Sequence record: PQ462667.1 | Direction: 5' to 3' (one strand) | Length of the DNA stretch: 64,000 nucleotides | DNA from: Escherichia phage HMD-P3 | Part shown: positions 299 to 54,377 of the stretch, one piece after another | Layout of the letters: each line of letters starts with the position of its first letter | Position numbering within the stretch: the stretch's first letter is position 1 | Notes under the pieces: model-generated | What the model saw: only the letters and a program-made list of their open reading frames with translations | Told to the model about the DNA's origin: nothing | The model's database searches: none | Translations under genes and position numbers: made by a program

Positions 299-831
299 TA
301 ATAAGTAACCAATTCCTGTACAAATCGCAGGCTGTTATCACTGTTTGCGCCAGTTGCGTAAACTAAACGAGTAGATTCATAGTTGTAATCTAGAATCGTA
401 TTATCCAGATGTACATCTGCCTCTAGTTTTTGATTACTAAAGATTGTGGATACGAAAGCACTTTCAATATGACCATGAATATACATTTCGTACAGTAATG
501 TTGCGCCACCTAAAACCACTGTCTGTTGATCTTTTAAGAATGTAGGTAATGTATCCCCAATCTTAGAAATTGGAGTGTAAATACCATGTTTAATATCATC
601 AGGCAGAGGACGATCCGCACGAATAAAGAGGTCAGATTCTCCAATCATACGTTGCCGAACAACTTCTGGAAGTGCTAAATAAGTACCCGCACCAATGATG
701 ATGTTATCTGGGTTCAACACGTCCAGTTGAGAGTAGAAAGCATCTAGTTCTTCTTTGAAGGAACCCCATGGAAGTTTACCTCGGAGGCCGAACTCCCCAT
801 TCGGCCCAACTGCATATAATGCCGTTATCAT
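298..831 (-). CDS. dihydrofolate reductase
   Basis: 177 aa ORF; DHFR-like N-terminal fold motifs (GxxGxLPW, VLGGATL); sits between nrdB and thyA as in T4/T5-type nucleotide operons; start overlaps nrdB stop (ATGA). Confidence 0.75.
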   Translation of the reverse strand: MITALYAVGPNGEFGLRGKLPWGSFKEELDAFYSQLDVLNPDNIIIGAGTYLALPEVVRQRMIGESDLFIRADRPLPDDIKHGIYTPISKIGDTLPTFLKDQQTVVLGGATLLYEMYIHGHIESAFVSTIFSNQKLEADVHLDNTILDYNYESTRLVYATGANSDNSLRFVQELVTY

Positions 832-1973
832 AAGAAATCTCCAAATTCATTGCCCAGATCTTTCAGAGTATCAGTAGAGGTCTCAGTTACCTGACCTACA
901 CGGTATGCTGCACCAATCTGGATTTCTTGTGGAGCAGGCTGTAGAGAAGTAGTATCCAACCAGTTCATGATCCACGGAATAGGGTTTTTGGTAATTACTG
1001 GTAAGTGACTAGGCCATTCTACACCAATGTGCATAAATGCGTTACGTCCCACAAAGTACAAATACTCTTCTAGAAGTTCTGCGTTCAAACCAATCAGGCT
1101 ACGACCTTTGAAAATGAAATGACCCCATTCAATTTCAGTTTTCAGAGTTTTCAGGAGCTGTGCTGGTGCTTTAGCCACTGCTTCATCTACCAGATCTTTG
1201 TCAAATTGCTGAAACATAATCTGGATGATTGCTTTGGACATCTGAGTATGCAGAGCTTCATCTTTAGCGATTAATTGCAGATTTTTAGCAATACCTTGCA
1301 GAATATCGTTCTCTGCTAATGCAAAGGTACATGCAAAGGATGCGTAAAACTGCATTGCTTCCAGACCATAGATCGCAAAGTAAGCGTCTAATAGTTTAGC
1401 CTGAGTTTCACGTTTAACTTCAGGGAACTCAGTTTCTGGGTATGTATTGTCGCCACGATGATCGCGTACTGCGATGAAATACTGACCTAACTGGTACAGT
1501 TCATCGAATAGTTCAACAGAATCAGCGATGCGTGCGAATGCTTCTTGGTTTTTGGTTACAGAATCAATAAATTCTGCTGGATCAGTTAACACATTACGAA
1601 TAATATTGCTATAAGCACGACTATGCAGATCTTCAAAATAGCTCCACTGCTTGAGCATACCTTCCAATTCTGGACGACTTACAAGCGGCATAATAGCTGC
1701 TTCAGGAGCACGACTGATAAAGGAGTCGGTTTGGGTTTGCCATGCTAAGTTCAGGAGTGTAATTTCCTGAATTTCACGCGGAAGGTTAGGCCATTGTTTC
1801 TTATCTGCTTCCAGACTGATTTCAGTTTCAGTCCAAAATTGAGAGCGTTGCAGTAGTGCCAGACGTTCTAGTTCTGGATGTGCTACACGTACGTAATCTG
1901 CGATACCGAGAGAATCTCCCAGGAAAAGGTCAGCGTTAGTATGATCCCAATTCAGGTTTAGTAAAGTAGTCAT
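828..1973 (-). CDS. nrdB: ribonucleotide reductase class Ia beta subunit
   Basis: 381 aa; di-iron ExxH ligand motifs (e.g. KDEALHTQ); immediately downstream of nrdA. Confidence 0.9.
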   Translation of the reverse strand: MTTLLNLNWDHTNADLFLGDSLGIADYVRVAHPELERLALLQRSQFWTETEISLEADKKQWPNLPREIQEITLLNLAWQTQTDSFISRAPEAAIMPLVSRPELEGMLKQWSYFEDLHSRAYSNIIRNVLTDPAEFIDSVTKNQEAFARIADSVELFDELYQLGQYFIAVRDHRGDNTYPETEFPEVKRETQAKLLDAYFAIYGLEAMQFYASFACTFALAENDILQGIAKNLQLIAKDEALHTQMSKAIIQIMFQQFDKDLVDEAVAKAPAQLLKTLKTEIEWGHFIFKGRSLIGLNAELLEEYLYFVGRNAFMHIGVEWPSHLPVITKNPIPWIMNWLDTTSLQPAPQEIQIGAAYRVGQVTETSTDTLKDLGNEFGDFL

Positions 1974-2079: not shown

Positions 2080-4410
2080 TTAAATAGTACAACCACCGGA
2101 TGCACAACCGGCTGCTTCTTCTCCAGCACCTCCACCATTTGCGGTATTGAAGTTAGCATAATACCAAGTTTTCCACCCATACTTAACAGCAGTCATGAAA
2201 TCACGAACTACTACTGGGCCAGGAATGATTTCATTCTCAAACTTGGTGTAGTCATAGTACATATTCGTACTGATAGACTGACTGAAGAATTTCTGCATAG
2301 TTGCTACCCATTTGATCCACTCGATACGATCTACATCATAAGCCAGTTTATAGCTCATTAACGTTTCCCAATCGGTTGCGCCTGGAGCAATTGCAATTAC
2401 TTTATTTACTGCACTACCTTTAATAGATACAATCTTACGGGGTGGTTCGATAGAGTTAGTAACACCTAACAGAACAGAAGAACTTTCCCCTGGCATCTGA
2501 GCAGTCAGAACAGAGTTACGCATACCATATTTCAGAATATCTGCACGCAGAGACTCCCAATCCATTTCTAGACCTACGGATACCAGTTCATCAACAGTTT
2601 TCTTGTACGTGTCGATTACCAGAATTCCTTTAGATGGTTTAGTACGATCAAACCACTCACATGCACCCTGTTCTTTAGCTAGGCGTACAGAGGCTTTATG
2701 CAGGAAGTAAGACAGTTTTTCAGCTTCACGGTGAATCCAGTTACGGGCTTCAATACCTTCATAAGCCAGACCTTCTGCCGCCATTGCACCTGCTGCGTTC
2801 ATCAGGCCAATACCAACATTACGACGTTTCTTAGCCGTATATTCCATAGTTGGGAACGGATAATCCTGAATTTCAATAATTGTATCAACGAATTTCAGGA
2901 GGATGTAGCAAGTTTTTTCCCACTCAGCCAAAGATTCCATGCGCCCAAGTACAACACCACCTAAGTTACACAGAGATACTTCACCAATATCCTCCGGCTT
3001 CATTTGATCAAGCTGCTCTTTTGTCTTGTACAGCTCTGTAATGTGATGGAACGGGCGTGTAGGCTGAGTAATTTCAACACAAAGGTTTGTCATACGGATC
3101 GGATCAAGGAAGTTACCGTGACGATTAGATTCCCCGATGTGATGAGCATACATACGTCCTGTTTCCATTCGGATACGTAGCCAAGTATCTAGGATTTCTT
3201 TTGCAGAGACTTTAGGAGCTGCTGGAACTGTTTTTCCTTCGTGGTCGATCTTTGTAAGAGATGCCACACGTTTCTCCGCTGCCACGTAGATTTCTTCAAA
3301 TTTAGCCTCGTCATCACTATAAAACGCTTCATGAACTTCTGGAGCATAGAAGTATGACATTAGCGTAATATCTTCGTTTTTCAGATAACGTTTTAACAAA
3401 AGATTGTTGAAGCTCAGAGAGTAATCCATCTTATCGATTTTATTCTCATCTGTAGCACGTTGTTGCTTAACCTGCATCAATTGAATGATTTCAGGGTCGA
3501 AGTATGGATAAGACACTGTAGCAGAACCACCACGAGTTTGCTGAGTATTGGCCTTTACTGAGCGGTCAATGTGTCGATAATATGGCAGTTTTCCGGAATG
3601 CGGGAATGCCCCATTTCGCACCGGATCAGCAATTGATCGGCTTTCAAGATGATACCCGATTCCCGCTCTGGCTGCGACCATTTTGAAGACGATGTGCTCG
3701 GCGGTGTCGATTGAATCCAACGTGTCAGTGGAATCCACGAGGCAGCAACTAGCAAATCCACGGTCACTAGAGCGCAGACCAACCAGTGGCGGCGTAGGAA
3801 CGTTAATTTTGTGGAGCGACATTGCGTTGTAGAGGTCGATTGCATCTAGAATTGTCCAGTTAGGTTGAGATAGCATCGCCATTGCCATACCCATGTAGGC
3901 AAACTGCGGAGTTTCATAAATTTCACCAGTGGCTATGTTACGGCGGGAATACTTATCAAAGAACTGCTTCAGCCCACCACTAGTAAAAAGACGGTCACGA
4001 TCATGGTCGATAACCTGATTCAGAGCTTCAAATTGCTCATCGGTAATCCATGCACTCATGTCTTCCCATGCACCTACGCTAACCATATGGTCATGGAAGA
4101 AACGCAGAGAAGGCGGTTCGAAGGAATCATAAAGGCGTTTACGCATTTGCGCAAGACGTAATTCCTTTGCTGGCACATCATATGCTGGATTATCTTTGAT
4201 AAGACTTTCAGCAGCTTTAATTAATGCATCCATCAGAGTGTCGGAATCTACAACCCCTTTAGGCAGAGTTTTTTGAGCAGCCATAGTAATGGCTGACCAA
4301 CTTACATCAACTGTTTTGCAACCATACTCTGCCCAACCATTGATTTTTTCAGGAGCAAAGTCTTCTACAGTACCGTCACGTTTAATTACTTTTTCAATGC
4401 GATGGCTCAT
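2080..4410 (-). CDS. nrdA: ribonucleotide reductase class Ia alpha subunit
   Basis: Large ORF with ATP-cone-like N-terminus (HRIEKVIKRDGTVEDF) and catalytic NLCVEI motif. Start placed at ATG 4410 (RBS AAGGAAAG upstream) rather than the longest ORF start 4515. Confidence 0.88.
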   Translation of the reverse strand: MSHRIEKVIKRDGTVEDFAPEKINGWAEYGCKTVDVSWSAITMAAQKTLPKGVVDSDTLMDALIKAAESLIKDNPAYDVPAKELRLAQMRKRLYDSFEPPSLRFFHDHMVSVGAWEDMSAWITDEQFEALNQVIDHDRDRLFTSGGLKQFFDKYSRRNIATGEIYETPQFAYMGMAMAMLSQPNWTILDAIDLYNAMSLHKINVPTPPLVGLRSSDRGFASCCLVDSTDTLDSIDTAEHIVFKMVAARAGIGYHLESRSIADPVRNGAFPHSGKLPYYRHIDRSVKANTQQTRGGSATVSYPYFDPEIIQLMQVKQQRATDENKIDKMDYSLSFNNLLLKRYLKNEDITLMSYFYAPEVHEAFYSDDEAKFEEIYVAAEKRVASLTKIDHEGKTVPAAPKVSAKEILDTWLRIRMETGRMYAHHIGESNRHGNFLDPIRMTNLCVEITQPTRPFHHITELYKTKEQLDQMKPEDIGEVSLCNLGGVVLGRMESLAEWEKTCYILLKFVDTIIEIQDYPFPTMEYTAKKRRNVGIGLMNAAGAMAAEGLAYEGIEARNWIHREAEKLSYFLHKASVRLAKEQGACEWFDRTKPSKGILVIDTYKKTVDELVSVGLEMDWESLRADILKYGMRNSVLTAQMPGESSSVLLGVTNSIEPPRKIVSIKGSAVNKVIAIAPGATDWETLMSYKLAYDVDRIEWIKWVATMQKFFSQSISTNMYYDYTKFENEIIPGPVVVRDFMTAVKYGWKTWYYANFNTANGGGAGEEAAGCASGGCTI

Positions 4411-4560
4411 TTGGCTTTCCTTTTTATAGTTATCAGGATTTAAGGAATATTCTACTTTATTATCGGTCATTAGGCAAATAAAATTTTCTGATAGAAAAGG
4501 CCCGAGTATTTTCATACCCAGGCCCTATATATTACCAGTCTAGCTTTTTAGCTTATTCAA

Positions 4561-4777: not shown

Positions 4778-5530
4778 TTACACCTTCCCCATGTCTTTAA
4801 AAATATCATAGAATGCTTTAGACTCAACAGAACGAACGTTATCAATCAATTCGATCATTGAGAATGGGGCATTTTCGTATTTCTCATAGACTTCCATAAG
4901 GAGCGCTAGACCTGAGTCACCTTTAATGTCTTTCTGAGCTATATCTCCGCAGATAATTAAACGGCAGTCTTGCCCTACACGAGTTAGGAGACAAATCATT
5001 GCCTCAACGGAAATATTCTGAGCTTCATCGACAATTACATAGGAGTTGTTGAAAGTTCTGCCACGAGCATGTTCGATAGCCAAAAATTTAATTTTCTGAC
5101 GTTCGACATATCCTTTATATGCATGATCGCCGATGGCCCATTTCATACCATCAGCTATTGGCTCCAACCAAGGCTCTAGCTTTTCCGCTAGATCACCAGG
5201 AAGCATACCAAGAGACTTACCTAGAGGTTCATTAGGACGTACGAGGATCACTTGCTCAATATCTGAGTGAATGTCTACGAGTTCCTGAGCTGCAAGAACG
5301 GACGGAATAAAGGTTTTACCAGTACCTGGCTCACCTATACCTACAGTCACTGTGTTGTTCTTGATCATATTGATATATGATTTTTGCTCGCGGTTTTTAC
5401 CTACTAGGGATTTAGCAACTGGGTTAGCGTAATCAGTAGAAAAATCAGCCTGAATTACGTTATTCTCATATTTGTTGCCACGCTTTCTTGAACCATTGCG
5501 GTTCTCTCTTTTTTGACGTGCTTTTCCCAT
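4778..5530 (-). CDS. phoH: PhoH-like ATPase
   Basis: Walker A GEPGTGKT and PhoH-like architecture; start placed at ATG 5530 preceded by AGGAG RBS (longest ORF begins at GTG 5539). Confidence 0.85.
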   Translation of the reverse strand: MGKARQKRENRNGSRKRGNKYENNVIQADFSTDYANPVAKSLVGKNREQKSYINMIKNNTVTVGIGEPGTGKTFIPSVLAAQELVDIHSDIEQVILVRPNEPLGKSLGMLPGDLAEKLEPWLEPIADGMKWAIGDHAYKGYVERQKIKFLAIEHARGRTFNNSYVIVDEAQNISVEAMICLLTRVGQDCRLIICGDIAQKDIKGDSGLALLMEVYEKYENAPFSMIELIDNVRSVESKAFYDIFKDMGKV

Positions 5531-5824
5531 AAATAACACTCCTATAGTGTACTTCGCTAACAGAGGATCAACAAAAAGATCTTGTTTATCAACTTACAAA
5601 TATATTATACCAATATATACAGTAAAAAGCAACTACAATTTTAAATAAGCCTATGATATTGCATTTAAATAAAAAATTTGCTTGCTTTTAACGTGAGATG
5701 TGTGATACTAGATAATCATTTTATATCGCGTGCACGAGTGCGTGATTATACAATTTTTAATAGAGATTGGCAAATAAAATTTTTTGACTCAGATCATGTT
5801 ACAGAACTTTATAGTAAAATATTG

Positions 5825-5853
5825 TTGACATCCGCCCTCGAATGAGTTATAAT
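5825..5853 (+). promoter_or_regulatory. sigma70-type promoter with perfect consensus (TTGACA, 17 bp, TATAAT) upstream of nrdD
   Basis: TTGACA at 5825..5830, 17-nt spacer, TATAAT at 5848..5853, AAGGAGAG RBS, ATG at 5883. Confidence 0.7.
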
Positions 5854-5882
5854 AGTAGTCTTAGTTAGAGAAGGAGAGTATA

Positions 5883-7757
5883 ATGAATCGCAATGAAGAA
5901 CTAAAGTATAAAGAAATGCAGGCGTTAATTAGAAACTGCAAAGAGATTATCGAAGGGTCAGCAGATGAAGAGCTGCTGTTTAATAATGCTAATAAACCCT
6001 CAGAACGTTTCCCTACACAAAGGGATATGCTTGCAGGTGAATTGAGTAAGTATCTGATTCTAGAAGAAATGCCAATTCAGATTCGAAATGCTCATATGAT
6101 TGGGGATATTCATTTCCATGATGCTGATTATGCTGCATTAGGCATGACTAACTGTTGTCTGGTAGCTCTGGAAGATATGCTGAAGAATGGTATGAAGGTT
6201 GGTAATGCTGAAATTAGCACTCCAAACTCTATCACTACTGCGGCGGCTATTACTGCTCAGATTATCACTCAGGTTAGCTCTCATCAGTATGGTGGTACTT
6301 CTGTAGATCGCCTTGATGAAGTATTAGCCCCTTATGTTCGTAAATCCTATGACAAAAATCATGCGTTTGCAAAACGTTGGACTAAGGATGAAGCCAAAGC
6401 ATCAGTAATGGCTACGGAGATGACTGAAAAGGAAGTCTATGATGCCTGTCAGGGTCTAGAGTATGAAATCAATACGATGTTCAACTCTAACGGTCAGAGT
6501 CCATTTATTACCTTTGGTTTTGGTCTAGGAACTTCTTGGGAAGCACGTCTAGTACAGAAAGCAATACTGAAAGTACGCATGGATGGTTTAGGTATCAATA
6601 AACGTACAGCTATCTTCCCGAAACTGGTATTTGTACTTCGTGATGGAGTAAATATGAAACCAGGAGATGTTAATTATGACATCAAGAAGTTAGCTATGAA
6701 ATGTACTGCTGAACGTATGTATCCAGACTATATCAGCTATGATAAGGTTGTGGAAGTTACTGGGGACTACAAAGTTTCTATGGGTTGTCGTTCATTCCTA
6801 GCTGCTACAGAAGATGGTGAAACTGCCGGTCGTAATAACTTAGGTGTTGTTTCTGTAAACTTGCCTAGAATTGCTATCGAAGCTGAAGGAAATATTGACC
6901 TATTCTTTGATTTGCTTGAGCTACGTGTAGATACAGCGTTAAAAGCGTTGGAGTGGAGAGTTGATCGCTTAAAATACATTCAAGCTAAAGCTGCACCCAT
7001 CCTGTATATGTCAGGAGCCTTTGGACTGCGCTTGGAGCCTGATGAATATGTATTCGATCATTTCTATAACCGTGCTTCTGTATCTCTAGGGTATATTGGT
7101 TGCCATGAAATGCTACAGTTTATGTTTGGCAAAGATGTAGACACAATGTCCGAGACCTGCATCAAGTTTGTTCAGCGTGTATTGCAGTACATGCGGGATA
7201 GAGTCGATCAGAAGAAGGAAGAAACTAAATTAGGTTATAGCCTGTATGCTACACCATCAGAATCCCTATGTGACCGTTTTTGTCGTCTAGACCGTGAATA
7301 TTTCCCAGAGCATGAAGATATTCTGTCCAAAGGATACTACACTAACTCGCACCACCTTGATGTAGAACGTAAAGTTGCTCCCAATGTGAAATTTGATTAT
7401 GAATCTAACTTTACTCCGATTGCTTCTGGTGGGTGCATTTCCTATGTAGAACTACCGGATATGAAACGATTCCCAGATGCACTGGAATGGGTTATTAATT
7501 ATGCTGCTAGTAAGGTTCATTACTTCGGTATTAATACCCCAGTGGATTCTTGTGGTAAATGTGGATTCTTAGGTGAAACAATAGCATCCGAAGATGGATT
7601 TAAGTGCCCTATCTGTGGTAATCATGACCCCGAAACTCTTGAAGTAACTCGTCGAGTTTGTGGGTATCTTGGAAATCCGGGTGCTCGTCCATTTAACCCC
7701 GGCAAACAGCACGAGGTGATGGGCAGAGTGAAGCATCAGGATATTCGAGCTAAGTAA
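5883..7757 (+). CDS. nrdD: anaerobic ribonucleoside-triphosphate reductase (class III)
   Basis: 624 aa; C-terminal glycyl-radical motif RVCGYLG and zinc ribbon CGKCG...CPICG. Confidence 0.9.
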   Translation: MNRNEELKYKEMQALIRNCKEIIEGSADEELLFNNANKPSERFPTQRDMLAGELSKYLILEEMPIQIRNAHMIGDIHFHDADYAALGMTNCCLVALEDMLKNGMKVGNAEISTPNSITTAAAITAQIITQVSSHQYGGTSVDRLDEVLAPYVRKSYDKNHAFAKRWTKDEAKASVMATEMTEKEVYDACQGLEYEINTMFNSNGQSPFITFGFGLGTSWEARLVQKAILKVRMDGLGINKRTAIFPKLVFVLRDGVNMKPGDVNYDIKKLAMKCTAERMYPDYISYDKVVEVTGDYKVSMGCRSFLAATEDGETAGRNNLGVVSVNLPRIAIEAEGNIDLFFDLLELRVDTALKALEWRVDRLKYIQAKAAPILYMSGAFGLRLEPDEYVFDHFYNRASVSLGYIGCHEMLQFMFGKDVDTMSETCIKFVQRVLQYMRDRVDQKKEETKLGYSLYATPSESLCDRFCRLDREYFPEHEDILSKGYYTNSHHLDVERKVAPNVKFDYESNFTPIASGGCISYVELPDMKRFPDALEWVINYAASKVHYFGINTPVDSCGKCGFLGETIASEDGFKCPICGNHDPETLEVTRRVCGYLGNPGARPFNPGKQHEVMGRVKHQDIRAK

Positions 7758-7764
7758 GCTAATC

Positions 7765-7800
7765 AGCCGGGTTGCTAGTCGACCTGGCTTTTATTTTATT
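7765..7800 (+). terminator. rho-independent terminator after nrdD
   Basis: Hairpin AGCCGGGT / ACCTGGCT (one G-U pair) followed by TTTTATTTTATT. Confidence 0.55.
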
Positions 7801-7828
7801 TGCTTTCAGCCAAAAATTTATATATAAT
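7800..7828 (+). promoter_or_regulatory. T5-type early promoter (TTGCTT, 17 bp, TATAAT)
   Basis: -35 TTGCTT 7800..7805, -10 TATAAT 7823..7828, then conserved AGATTTATAAATTTGAGAGGAG box and ATG 7857. Confidence 0.65.
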
Positions 7829-7856
7829 AGATTTATAAATTTGAGAGGAGAAAGAT

Positions 7857-8237
7857 ATGGAATTAAAGCCCTATATAGTTGAATCTACATGTGGTAGTTT
7901 CCATCTGGGTGTGGATAATATTGCTGAGGCTGTCTTTGCTGCTACAGGTGATTACTCGCATATAGAGGGTGTTGCATACCCTACCATTATTGGCGATTGG
8001 GTGGGAACAAATCTAGATGTATCGCCTTATAACCCATATTGCTTGTTTGATGAAGACAGAGATGAAGTAAAATGTAATCTTGAATTTGTGTATAATAGAG
8101 TGTTAAAAGTGTACCAACGTAGCCCCAATGGGTACGAAGATATTACTTGGAGTATTAAACAGTATCTTAAAGATATATACTCTAGTTTTTCTGACGAAGA
8201 CCTAGAAACAGTTGCAGTGGAGTTTAATAATGACTAA
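7857..8237 (+). CDS. hypothetical early protein (126 aa)
   Basis: ORF directly behind promoter and GAGGAG RBS; no recognisable motif. Confidence 0.6.
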   Translation: MELKPYIVESTCGSFHLGVDNIAEAVFAATGDYSHIEGVAYPTIIGDWVGTNLDVSPYNPYCLFDEDRDEVKCNLEFVYNRVLKVYQRSPNGYEDITWSIKQYLKDIYSSFSDEDLETVAVEFNND

Positions 8238-8436
8238 GAATGTGAAACACCTTAAATATCGCTTAATTTACAACGGACGTATGGAAACAGAAGATCTGGC
8301 CCAGTTAGCTATTAATTCTAATGAGGTTACAGTACGCGCGCTGGCAATTGAAAAGTTGCGTGCCTCTTATGAAAATCGTGTTATGGAACTAGAGGAGAAA
8401 CTTTATGGCATTCTCGAAGCCGATGCTACCAGATAA
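8230..8436 (+). CDS. hypothetical small early protein
   Basis: ATG 8230 overlaps the upstream stop; start uncertain (longest ORF from 8212). Confidence 0.4.
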   Translation: MTKNVKHLKYRLIYNGRMETEDLAQLAINSNEVTVRALAIEKLRASYENRVMELEEKLYGILEADATR

Positions 8437-8626
8437 GGGTTTAAACGCCGCTTTGGAAAACGCATTAATGCAGCGCTGGGAAACTGGCTATAAGGATGGT
8501 GTTGAATCCTGCGCTACTATGCTAGAAGTTATTGCTAATACCTTAATGGAGAAAGGCAATAAAGAATTAGCTGAGCTATTAGACAGTATTGGGCAAAACT
8601 TCAGAGAACAGGTGAAAAATGCGTAG
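8405..8626 (+). CDS. hypothetical small early protein (73 aa)
   Basis: GAGGAG RBS 6 nt upstream of ATG 8405. Confidence 0.5.
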   Translation: MAFSKPMLPDKGLNAALENALMQRWETGYKDGVESCATMLEVIANTLMEKGNKELAELLDSIGQNFREQVKNA

Positions 8627-9434
8627 ATTAATTATTATTAGTGGTGCAGGTTTGAGTGTTGAAAGTGGTGTACGAGCTTTTCGTACTGATACTGCTAGCG
8701 GTAAAGCATTGTGGGATGATTATGATCTAGAAGAAGTATGTAATATTCATGCCTTTCGCGGTAATTTTTATCATAAAACCCATATGTTTTACAACAAGCG
8801 TCGTGAAGAACTAAAAACTGTTGAACCCAATCTTGCGCATTTGCGTATTGGTGAATGGTATAAACAATATCCAGGTCAAATAGTAAACTTGACTACCAAT
8901 GTTGATGACCTTATTGAGCGTGCTGGCGTTCCACATAGTGACATTCTGCACATTCACGGATATTTAAAAGAGGTTGTTGTAGCTGATAACTACAATAGTA
9001 GCAATAAACGGATTATTGATGTAGGATACAATTCTATTGATCCAGATGATTATAAATGGGTTAAACCTAATGTAATCTTCTTTGGAGAGCATGCTCCAGC
9101 ATATGCGGAGATGTACAATGTTTTTGATGGTATTACCAGTCAAGATATGATCATTGTGGTTGGTTGCTCCAACCAAGTAATTAACTTCTACTGGGAATTA
9201 TTTCCTGTTCTTAATTTGACTGCTGCTAAGCTAATGGTTGTTAACTACTATGATAGTGCCCTAGCGGTGGAACCGGGCTATCAAGGTATGACTCGTAGTG
9301 AGATGTATCAACTGGAAGAACGTGGTATCCCTTACTGGAGTAAAGGTGCGGTAGATGCTTTCAGTGATCCTGATTTTATTGCTCGTGTAGAAGCTCATTT
9401 AGGGGGTAGACCTTATGTATCAGGAACTAAGTAA
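8619..9434 (+). CDS. Sir2-family protein lacking a zinc-ribbon module (NAD-dependent deacetylase / NADase-like)
   Basis: Sirtuin NAD-binding motif GAGLSVESGVRAFR near the N-terminus and HIHG catalytic-His motif; no CxxC...CxxC pairs anywhere in the protein. Confidence 0.75.
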   Translation: MRRLIIISGAGLSVESGVRAFRTDTASGKALWDDYDLEEVCNIHAFRGNFYHKTHMFYNKRREELKTVEPNLAHLRIGEWYKQYPGQIVNLTTNVDDLIERAGVPHSDILHIHGYLKEVVVADNYNSSNKRIIDVGYNSIDPDDYKWVKPNVIFFGEHAPAYAEMYNVFDGITSQDMIIVVGCSNQVINFYWELFPVLNLTAAKLMVVNYYDSALAVEPGYQGMTRSEMYQLEERGIPYWSKGAVDAFSDPDFIARVEAHLGGRPYVSGTK

Positions 9435-9927
9435 TACTCCAATTATTTTTCTAGACATTGATGGGGTGCTCAATTCGAGCATCTCCCACCATCATGCACC
9501 TGATAATGAAAAGATTTTCTTTGGAAGTGACTGGGTTTTCAAACCGCTTCTCAAGGCTTTTCAGGACTTTATTCGTCCTTCTCCAATAATGATTGTTGGA
9601 GTATCATCTTGGTTCTCTGTCAGAAATGAGATGGAGAACGTTCAGATTATGACCGGATTAGGTCTTATCGATCGCTTTCTTGGTACAACGGATTTTACTG
9701 GTGGTGGATTATCTAGGGGTAATTCTGTTCTTCGTTTCGTCGAAAAGCATAAGCTCAAACATTGGTGTGTACTTGATGATGCGGGTGCTATGATGTATCA
9801 GTATCCAACGGTTATAGTCAACGGTAGAACTGGGATAAATCTTCAAGATTTAAAAGCTGTTAGCTATATGCTAGAATTTAGCCCAGATCTTGAAATGTGT
9901 AAATCCTTACAACAATTTAAGGTGTAA
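9415..9927 (+). CDS. HAD-superfamily phosphatase-like protein
   Basis: HAD motif I FLDIDGVLN at the N-terminus; 170 aa; overlaps the Sir2-like gene by 20 nt. Confidence 0.6.
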   Translation: MYQELSNTPIIFLDIDGVLNSSISHHHAPDNEKIFFGSDWVFKPLLKAFQDFIRPSPIMIVGVSSWFSVRNEMENVQIMTGLGLIDRFLGTTDFTGGGLSRGNSVLRFVEKHKLKHWCVLDDAGAMMYQYPTVIVNGRTGINLQDLKAVSYMLEFSPDLEMCKSLQQFKV

Positions 9928-9929
9928 AT

Positions 9930-10358
9930 ATGTTCAATAATGTATTCTCTAAAGAAGCTAACCCAATTTTGGTTAACTTTTGGCGTACTCTCCCGGCTAG
10001 CCTGTATAATGAGGCTATTAACTCCTTGAAAATATGGTGTGAGAATAACGAAATCTCTTTTGCTTTTAAAGATGATGTTGATGAGGCCCCTTGTATTGGT
10101 TTAAGTGTGCAGGTAGAGGAGGGTCTTGAAGAGATTGTCGGCTGGAAAGAGTTAGATGAAATGGGCTTAGTTTTTGCGTTAAACTATAAGCTGTTTATGC
10201 CTGCTAAGCATCGCCTCGTTGTTAACTATAAAACTAGTGAATCTCCTGGTTTTCAGGTTAATGAACGTTATGGTTGGTCTTACTCACCGGAAGAAGTAAA
10301 TGAGGGGATTCAGAAACTTCGACGTTTCGGGTATATAATCCCAGGTTTAACTGCTTAA
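9930..10358 (+). CDS. hypothetical protein, paralog A of a tandem pair
   Basis: Shares PCIG ... ELD-x-MGL-x-ALN ... PGL motifs with the next ORF. Confidence 0.6.
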   Translation: MFNNVFSKEANPILVNFWRTLPASLYNEAINSLKIWCENNEISFAFKDDVDEAPCIGLSVQVEEGLEEIVGWKELDEMGLVFALNYKLFMPAKHRLVVNYKTSESPGFQVNERYGWSYSPEEVNEGIQKLRRFGYIIPGLTA

Positions 10359-10367
10359 GGAGGCAGA

Positions 10368-10757
10368 ATGGAACAAGTATATTGGCGTCAGATTGACCCT
10401 AGTTTGGTGAAACGTGCGGAGAAGCTGCTACAACGTTGGTTGGGGGTAAGACAAGCCTCCTTTACTTTTCCGGAACAGCAAATAGATGACCCCTGCATTG
10501 GTGTTTTCCTGTCTGGATATGCCGGGGAATGGGAATTGGATTGGAATGAATTGTCTGCTATGGGCTTGATTGTTGCCCTAAACTTCTCTATATTCCATCC
10601 ACGTGGTTTGGCCATATGTCGTGTGCCGGATGATGGTTGTTCGCCCCATCTTTTACAGGTGGAAGATGATATTTGGGAGTACACTCCAGATATTCTCAAA
10701 GAAGCTAAAGAACAATTAAACCGTGTTGGGATCTATGTTCCGGGGTTAAGTGACTAA
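10368..10757 (+). CDS. hypothetical protein, paralog B of a tandem pair
   Basis: Same conserved blocks as 9930..10358 (DPCIGV, MGLIVALNF, PGLSD); AGGAG RBS upstream. Confidence 0.6.
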   Translation: MEQVYWRQIDPSLVKRAEKLLQRWLGVRQASFTFPEQQIDDPCIGVFLSGYAGEWELDWNELSAMGLIVALNFSIFHPRGLAICRVPDDGCSPHLLQVEDDIWEYTPDILKEAKEQLNRVGIYVPGLSD

Positions 10758-53882: not shown

Positions 53883-53885
53883 TTA

Positions 53886-54377
53886 TTAGCCTCCAACACC
53901 GGGATTAACTGTCACAGCACATGTAGCAGAGTCCTTGCTTACTTGCTTACTATCTGTTACAGTTACTTTATAGGCTCCAGAATCCTCTGTAGCTGCTGCA
54001 GGCTTAGTATAGGTAGCTCCTGAAGCACCAGGAATAGGAGAACCATCTTTAGTCCATGCGTAAGTATAAGGACCAGTGCCGCCGGTTGCAGTAACAGAAA
54101 GTGTTAATGCTACTCCCTCTTCAACGGACATGCTAGCAGCTAAATCTTTAGAAAGAGTTAAGGGCGGAGCAGGCGGAGCAGGAGGAACTGCTTTACCATA
54201 TGCCTCTACAAATTTCTTCCATACTTTACGGTTAGTATGCGCAGATGAAAGTCCTAGTTCTCTACGCAGAAAAGCATAGCTAGGAACATATTTATGCGCA
54301 GCAACCGTAGCAAAGAAGATATGAGATTCTGGTAGTTTTTCACCAAAAATGGTCTTTAGACCATTATAATCAATCAT
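53886..54377 (-). CDS. capsid decoration protein with Ig-like domain (T5 pb10-like)
   Basis: 163 aa; C-terminal Ig-like sequence ...YTYAWTKDGSPIPGASGATYTKP...YKVTVTD...AVTVNPG. Confidence 0.7.
   Translation of the reverse strand: MIDYNGLKTIFGEKLPESHIFFATVAAHKYVPSYAFLRRELGLSSAHTNRKVWKKFVEAYGKAVPPAPPAPPLTLSKDLAASMSVEEGVALTLSVTATGGTGPYTYAWTKDGSPIPGASGATYTKPAAATEDSGAYKVTVTDSKQVSKDSATCAVTVNPGVGG

Follow-up and report, generated by a model that had tools for sequence, protein, structure and literature searches.

The DNA analysed here, a window of 64,000 nt (64 kb) from Escherichia phage HMD-P3 (sequence record PQ462667.1), belongs to a T5-like phage (Demerecviridae, Tequintavirus). A megablast search with positions 5500–10500 found 457 phage records, with Klebsiella phage KPP2018 (Tequintavirus) the closest at 98.2 % identity. 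The window is collinear with bases 117154–137988 and then 1–43577 of KPP2018. Relative to the T5 reference, it begins at ~47.6 kb (frd/nrdB) and reaches ~3.5 kb into the terminal repeat, and the part of a T5-type genome that is absent from it corresponds to T5 ~3.5–47.6 kb. The complete genome would be roughly 110–120 kb, and ~45 kb of HMD-P3 lies outside the window.

Between positions 828 and 7757, nrdB, nrdA and phoH are found on one strand and nrdD is divergent from them, with no adjacent nrdG, an orphan-nrdD arrangement. The features of the locus and of the NrdD coding sequence are as follows.

828–1973, minus strand: nrdB, class Ia RNR small subunit, identified by its collinearity with KPP2018_206 and T5.094 nrdB
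2080–4515, minus strand: nrdA, class Ia RNR large subunit, collinear with the class Ia alpha region of KPP2018 (97.9 % nucleotide identity) and in the same position in T5
4778–5539, minus strand: phoH-like gene (Pfam PhoH, E=3.3e-61), divergent from nrdD
5773–5745, minus strand: candidate phoH-side promoter, 11/12 match
5825–5853, plus strand: sigma-70 promoter of nrdD, TTGACA, 17-nt spacer, TATAAT, 12/12 consensus match
5883–7757, plus strand: nrdD, catalytic subunit of a class III (anaerobic) ribonucleoside-triphosphate reductase, 624 aa, complete, without ATP-cone
6147–6164, plus strand: active-site cysteine loop TNCCLV, residues 89–94, the same in 7/7 Demerecviridae NrdD aligned
6780–6797, plus strand: MGCRSF, residues 300–305, holding the thiyl-radical cysteine, invariant in the phages and E. 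coli NrdD
7551–7616, plus strand: C-terminal zinc ribbon CxxC...CxxC (Cys557, 560, 575 and 578), 4/4 cysteines kept throughout the alignment
7650–7673, plus strand: glycyl-radical loop RRVCGYLG, residues 590–597, radical glycine Gly594, the same as the E. coli NrdD loop
7765–7799, plus strand: rho-independent terminator of nrdD, 10-bp stem (6 GC pairs) and then a T-run
7857–8237, plus strand: separate ORF of 126 aa, homologue of T5.100, PHROG 11748 (unknown function)

The product of nrdD matched NrdD profiles over its full length and above their curated cutoffs and has the RVxGY motif, the active-site cysteines and the zinc ribbon. The scores were 574.8 bits for Pfam NRDD (PF13597, E=2.7e-172, cutoff 26.2), 844 bits for the NCBIfam equivalog PRK09263 (cutoff 657) and 588.6 bits for TIGR02487 (cutoff 326), and Pfam Gly_radical was matched with E=9.4e-23. 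As the match to PRK09263 covers model positions 87–706 of 712, beginning only at position 87, and no ATP-cone match was found, the protein was concluded to be without an ATP-cone. The protein shares 54 % identity with E. coli NrdD and 100 % with the NrdD of Shigella phage SSP1, and the closest solved structures are 9d3x (E=1.5e-188) and T4 NrdD (1h78, E=2e-177). The first-pass annotation had extended nrdD from 5883 to 8237; the gene is real but the end is not, as the reading frame stops at 7757 and the remainder is made up of the terminator and the separate 126-aa ORF. This ORF has no Pfam or NCBIfam match and only three scattered cysteines, and its homologues are confined to Tequintavirus loci, with none at the five other Demerecviridae nrdD loci compared.

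In the T5 reference, a promoter (T5 53884–53958) and a terminator are annotated at the positions equivalent to those of HMD-P3 nrdD. With a promoter and a terminator of its own, nrdD forms a monocistronic unit. An FNR box was also looked for upstream of nrdD. The sole site (5784–5797) has 2 mismatches and was rejected, since such matches occur at chance frequency (60 in the window against 58.6 expected by chance) and therefore provide no evidence of anaerobic regulation for nrdD.

The first-pass annotation had reported that no small ORF next to nrdD carries the CxxxCxxC cluster of the activase NrdG, and this was borne out across the window, as a six-frame scan of all 64 kb found the motif only within stop-to-stop frames no longer than 29 aa. 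A relaxed pattern (Cx2-8Cx2C), applied to window frames of at least 90 aa, gave four matches in three frames, none of them supported as coding, and a tblastn search of the window with E. coli NrdG gave a best E-value of 3.3. An NrdG HMM was built from eight sequences of 154–204 aa (E. coli, T4, ICP1, a Felixounavirus, rV5, and Enterococcus, Clostridium and Lactococcus phages) and was run against six-frame translations using hmmsearch --max (filters off). The positive controls scored 190–240 bits (230–240 bits at the control loci; E=1e-70), and the best match in the window had an E-value of 0.9.

The Demerecviridae sequence searched comprised the window, T5 1–50 kb, the whole KPP2018 genome and five further nrdD loci, from Sugarlandvirus KpGranit, Salmonella phage RUS_R2, Shenzhenvirus AhSzw-1 and two Epseptimavirus phages. 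The best NrdG HMM match in all of this had an E-value of 0.24, at the AhSzw-1 locus, and the five further loci were without nrdG. Neither tblastn (best E-values of 3 to 6) nor the HMM detected an NrdG in T5 1–50 kb or the complete KPP2018 genome, and no activase or PflA homologue is named among the annotations of either. The search for a CxxxCxxC ORF, which the first-pass annotation had proposed for the complete genome, was run on these two relatives. It identified a sole annotated ORF, T5.055 / KPP2018_095 (101–103 aa, motif CICSCWMCGNPRK (CICSCWMC)), which is not radical-SAM-like. The product falls in PHROG 4499, a family of unknown function, and its N-terminus is highly basic. It was rejected as a mini-activase because it has no Pfam or NCBIfam match and an NrdG-HMM E-value of 2.3 and, at 103 aa in T5, is too short for a radical-SAM core when compared with known activases (NrdG, 154–204 aa). 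A 174-aa frame containing CTATCSDC (T5 39134–38610) was also rejected, being unannotated, mostly antisense to T5.077 and T5.078 and with an NrdG-HMM E-value of 2.9.

T5.055 / KPP2018_095 adjoins a gene (T5.056 / KPP2018_096) that belongs to the region beyond the HMD-P3 window and encodes a GrcA/YfiD-like spare glycyl-radical protein with the loop RVSGYAV. The T5-like lineage thus seems to have two glycyl-radical proteins and to be without an activase. A GrcA/YfiD-like protein is also known from T4 (Y06I), where PFL-AE installs its glycyl radical (PMC8683613).

The presence of nrdD without nrdG is a family-wide trait of T5-like phages that has been documented since 2013. The layout with nrdB-nrdA-phoH on one strand and a divergent nrdD was also found in T5, KPP2018, KpGranit and RUS_R2, and the order nrdB-nrdA-phoH | nrdD-...-Sir2 without nrdG is found in Tequintavirus, Epseptimavirus, Sugarlandvirus and an unclassified Salmonella phage. 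Dwivedi et al. 2013 described nrdD together with nrdAB and without nrdG in many phages, named T5, EPS7 and SPC35 for the phoH gene located between both RNR classes, and placed these three in one nrdD cluster with a gene order unlike nrdGDBA (PMC3653736). The observation itself was therefore already known. In the phage collection, NrdD was found in 2796 records, 551 of them of T5 type (at least 60 % identity), and an NrdG-like match in 2273, totals that agree roughly with an absence of the activase from the T5-type group. Among Salmonella phage records, the counts for NrdD (345), the T5-type locus query (273) and NrdG (126) do not reconcile exactly; because queries and thresholds differ among the counts, the overall totals alone were used, as rough support.

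As the known glycyl-radical enzymes all need radical-SAM activases and none was found in the phage, the host would have to supply one. We infer that HMD-P3 NrdD is probably activated in trans by host NrdG that is already present at the time of infection. Reliance on a host activase, raised in the first-pass annotation, is the explanation left standing when purifying selection on the gene, the host-identical glycyl-radical loop and the near-universal presence of nrdD in the host are considered together, with the activation step itself arrived at from sequence comparison. In complete E. coli genomes, nrdD was found in 5396 of 5426, and nrdG was directly downstream in the one genome inspected.

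In this mechanism nrdD would be a functional monocistronic early gene in a Demerecviridae lineage without nrdG. Host NrdG, the radical-SAM activase that enterobacterial hosts already contain when growing anaerobically, would convert NrdD into the active form with a glycyl radical at Gly594, acting catalytically with SAM and reduced flavodoxin. For anaerobic (gut) infection the phage would thereby gain a further NTP reductase, one that lacks an ATP-cone, and its class Ia NrdAB would serve aerobic infection. T5 silences host transcription and breaks down host DNA early in infection, so the usable NrdG would be limited to protein made beforehand. Cross-activation by host NrdG is also not automatic, since T4 NrdD, in work attributed to Young, Ohman and Sjoberg (J Biol Chem 1994), reportedly requires T4 NrdG even in an nrdG+ host.

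The sequences around the radical glycine were compared between phages with and without their own nrdG. The loop VTRRVCGYLG is identical in E. coli NrdD, HMD-P3 NrdD and all other Demerecviridae NrdD compared. In four phage lineages that carry nrdG (T4-like Sf21, rV5-like EF1-1, FBKp34 and K64-1, the last with an unannotated nrdG found at 5009–5476 of its locus sequence), the loops have all diverged, to IRRTCGYLG in the T4-like lineage and to VRRVSGYLS or IRRVSGYLG/S. Over the glycine and 15 residues on either side, identity to E. coli NrdD was 0.71–0.75 in the Demerecviridae without nrdG versus 0.48–0.68 in phages with nrdG, a comparison of one NrdG-less lineage with four others that is descriptive rather than statistical. 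Likeness of the core to E. coli NrdD (0.52–0.54 for NrdG-less phages, 0.42–0.60 for those with their own nrdG) does not explain the difference in the glycine segment. The C-terminal domain of T4-like NrdD resembles that of E. coli less (0.47) than the core does (0.60), and that of T5-type NrdD resembles it more (0.62–0.64, core 0.54). The pattern in the loop and C-terminal domain fits possible selection for matching host NrdG. Specificity between glycyl-radical enzymes and their activases has been little studied, according to a 2026 review. The same review states that in the known cases of cross-activation the glycine loops are identical or near-identical (PMC13450708).

Instead of NrdG, some other radical-SAM enzyme of the host, such as PflA or a further activase of glycyl-radical enzymes, might act on the phage NrdD. 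The GrcA/YfiD-like protein of the T5-like relatives, with its PFL-type loop, would need host PflA, and the lineage may plausibly exploit host activases generally. However, the phage NrdD loop is the same as that of the natural substrate of NrdG, and E. coli PFL-AE is inactive on a peptide of the class III loop RVCGYLG, installing no radical on it (PMC13450708). We consider activation by PflA or a similar enzyme to be quite improbable.

That nrdD might be an inactive relic that is never activated was considered because the laboratory T5 reference has an in-frame 50-aa deletion within nrdD, which indicates that the gene is dispensable under laboratory conditions. Against this, dN/dS for nrdD remains very low across Tequintavirus and Epseptimavirus, at 0.015 between HMD-P3 and T5 (dS 0.34), 0.017 between HMD-P3 and OSY-STA (dS 0.67) and 0.051 between HMD-P3 and KFSSM (dS 0.79), and the gene is found in hundreds of isolates. 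The TNCCLV motif of HMD-P3 aligns with TNCCLV of T4 NrdD, the equivalents of T4 Cys79 and Cys290 are both kept, and all of the catalytic residues are retained even in family members with only 60 % amino-acid identity. Judged from its sequence, HMD-P3 nrdD is not a relic but a gene with intact catalytic motifs under strong purifying selection, which implies that the NrdD protein must become activated in infected cells. A relic is therefore very improbable.

The first-pass annotation had also suggested that nrdG lies outside the window. The window makes up only a part of the genome, the early regions of T5-like phages are mosaic, and the best match in the phage collection to positions 30–54 kb (fp01) has only 94 % identity and 87 % coverage; an nrdG gene in HMD-P3 could accordingly be sought in the ~45 kb beyond the window, which would include the pre-early, early and tRNA regions. 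As far as this can be tested with relatives, the suggestion is contradicted, as T5 1–50 kb and KPP2018 gave no NrdG by motif scan, tblastn, HMM or annotation, and the literature includes many phages with nrdD and nrdAB but without nrdG (PMC3653736). We regard a gene in that region as extremely improbable.

It is likewise exceedingly doubtful that a phage protein outside the radical-SAM family is a novel activase, as T5.055 / KPP2018_095, although the only annotated CxxxCxxC ORF in the two relatives and located beside the GrcA-like gene, fails on length, family match and HMM score as described above, the 126-aa ORF, also rejected as an NrdD partner, is not conserved at the five other Demerecviridae loci that retain nrdD and has scattered cysteines, and every glycyl-radical activase known to us is a radical-SAM enzyme.

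Returning to activation by host NrdG, we lean, if only slightly, towards a broader version in which the activase-recognition surface of NrdD (the glycine loop and the C-terminal domain) has stayed matched to enterobacterial NrdG in T5-like phages, host nrdG is an unrecognised host factor for anaerobic infection, and NrdD and the GrcA-like protein both need host activases. Biocontrol and therapy with T5-like phages have been widely proposed against Salmonella and E. coli in the anaerobic environment of the gut. Should the anaerobic dNTP supply depend on host NrdG, phage yield would be affected by the nrdG status of the host and by its anaerobic physiology before infection. The T5-type NrdD would also offer a natural case in which to study how specific activases are for their glycyl-radical enzymes. 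The practical consequence is modest, and the genomic observation has been in the literature since 2013.

Among known systems, T5 is the closest. Its nrdD (T5.099) is the same gene in the same synteny (nrdB-nrdA-phoH | nrdD-small ORFs-Sir2), with a promoter, a terminator and no nrdG, and its product has 99 % amino-acid identity to HMD-P3 NrdD. The T5 reference NrdD is 574 aa because of the deletion (150 bp, in-frame), whereas that of HMD-P3 is the full-length 624 aa, and the homing endonuclease gene hegH found between nrdB and nrdA in T5 is not in HMD-P3. E. coli NrdD shares the loop VTRRVCGYLG with HMD-P3 and is also above the cutoff of PRK09263, but its N-terminus carries an ATP-cone (~90 residues) and its gene shares an operon with that of the activase (nrdDG), two features that the HMD-P3 gene lacks. 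T4 Y06I and E. coli YfiD/GrcA, both of which host PflA activates, set a precedent for the activation proposed in HMD-P3, since Y06I is a phage glycyl-radical protein that needs a host activase (PMC8683613), but that system repairs pyruvate formate-lyase, unlike the ribonucleotide reduction carried out by NrdD. T4 NrdD, like that of HMD-P3, is without an ATP-cone and, at ~50 % identity, shares the catalytic cysteines, zinc ribbon and C-terminal glycine. Unlike HMD-P3, T4-like phages have their own NrdG encoded directly downstream of nrdD, and their glycine loop (IRRTCGYLG) has diverged from that of the host, while the loop of HMD-P3 is identical to it.

The genomes of T5-like phages contain a gene for an autonomous glycyl-radical protein of 122 aa that resembles GrcA/YfiD and has a PFL-type loop (RVSGYAV). 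This protein matched the Pfam Gly_radical profile (1.1e-17) and scored 121 bits with NCBIfam TIGR04365, which is below the 170-bit cutoff. In the sequence records its gene is annotated as either 'acetyltransferase-related' or 'formate-lyase'. Together with NrdD, it gives this lineage, which lacks an activase, two orphan glycyl-radical proteins. Two examples and the gene neighbouring one of them, in the first 50 kb of T5 (L005) or in part of the Klebsiella phage KPP2018 record (L003), are:

L005:27656-28024, minus strand, T5.056, GrcA/YfiD-like, outside the window
L003:17403-17771, minus strand, KPP2018_096, GrcA/YfiD-like, outside the window
L005:27263-27574, minus strand, T5.055, 103 aa, immediately 3' of the GrcA-like gene

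T5.055 was the sole annotated ORF with a CxxxCxxC motif in the T5-like genomes. The protein has a strongly basic N-terminus together with a CICSCWMCGNPRK motif and is assigned to PHROG 4499, a family labelled as of unknown function; no match was found when it was compared with the Pfam and NCBIfam profiles. An nrdG that had not been annotated was found in Klebsiella phage K64-1 (L021:5009-5476, GenBank accession number AB897757), where it scored 199 bits with the NrdG HMM; ~700 bp separate it from the annotated nrdD, which lies upstream.

The nrdD of the T5 reference (T5.099, L011:3961-5685) carries a 150-bp in-frame deletion relative to the window (7061-7210), bounded by direct repeats of 7 bp (TCGATCA; window 7054-7060 and 7204-7210). 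Residues 393-442, which include the conserved RASVSLGYIG segment, are missing as a result. The 574-aa NrdD of laboratory T5 may be inactive, and this phage may therefore be an unsuitable strain for tests of nrdD function.

Downstream of nrdD, the window contains:

8619-9434, intact Sir2-family gene
9415-9927, gene for a HAD-domain protein (HAD_SAK_2, 'Swiss Army Knife RNA repair')
9930-10358 and 10368-10757, two tandem DUF7415 paralogues

In the KPP2018 record (137,988 bp), a block of ~29 kb with an identical gene series is annotated twice, at about 50-79 kb and 79.5-109 kb (L003). This is probably an assembly artefact that accounts for the oversized genome.

In the Salmonella phages KFSSM (L010:825-1493) and RUS_R2 (L007:3094-3999), an additional ORF, annotated as a hypothetical protein and an endonuclease, respectively, has been inserted directly 5' of nrdD and extends over the start of that gene. 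Both phages have a different sequence in place of the first ~25 residues of NrdD, and the ORF looks like a homing-endonuclease insertion. An HNH homing endonuclease gene, hegH (T5.095), is found between nrdB and nrdA in T5, whereas the window has just ~106 bp at this position (1973-2080).
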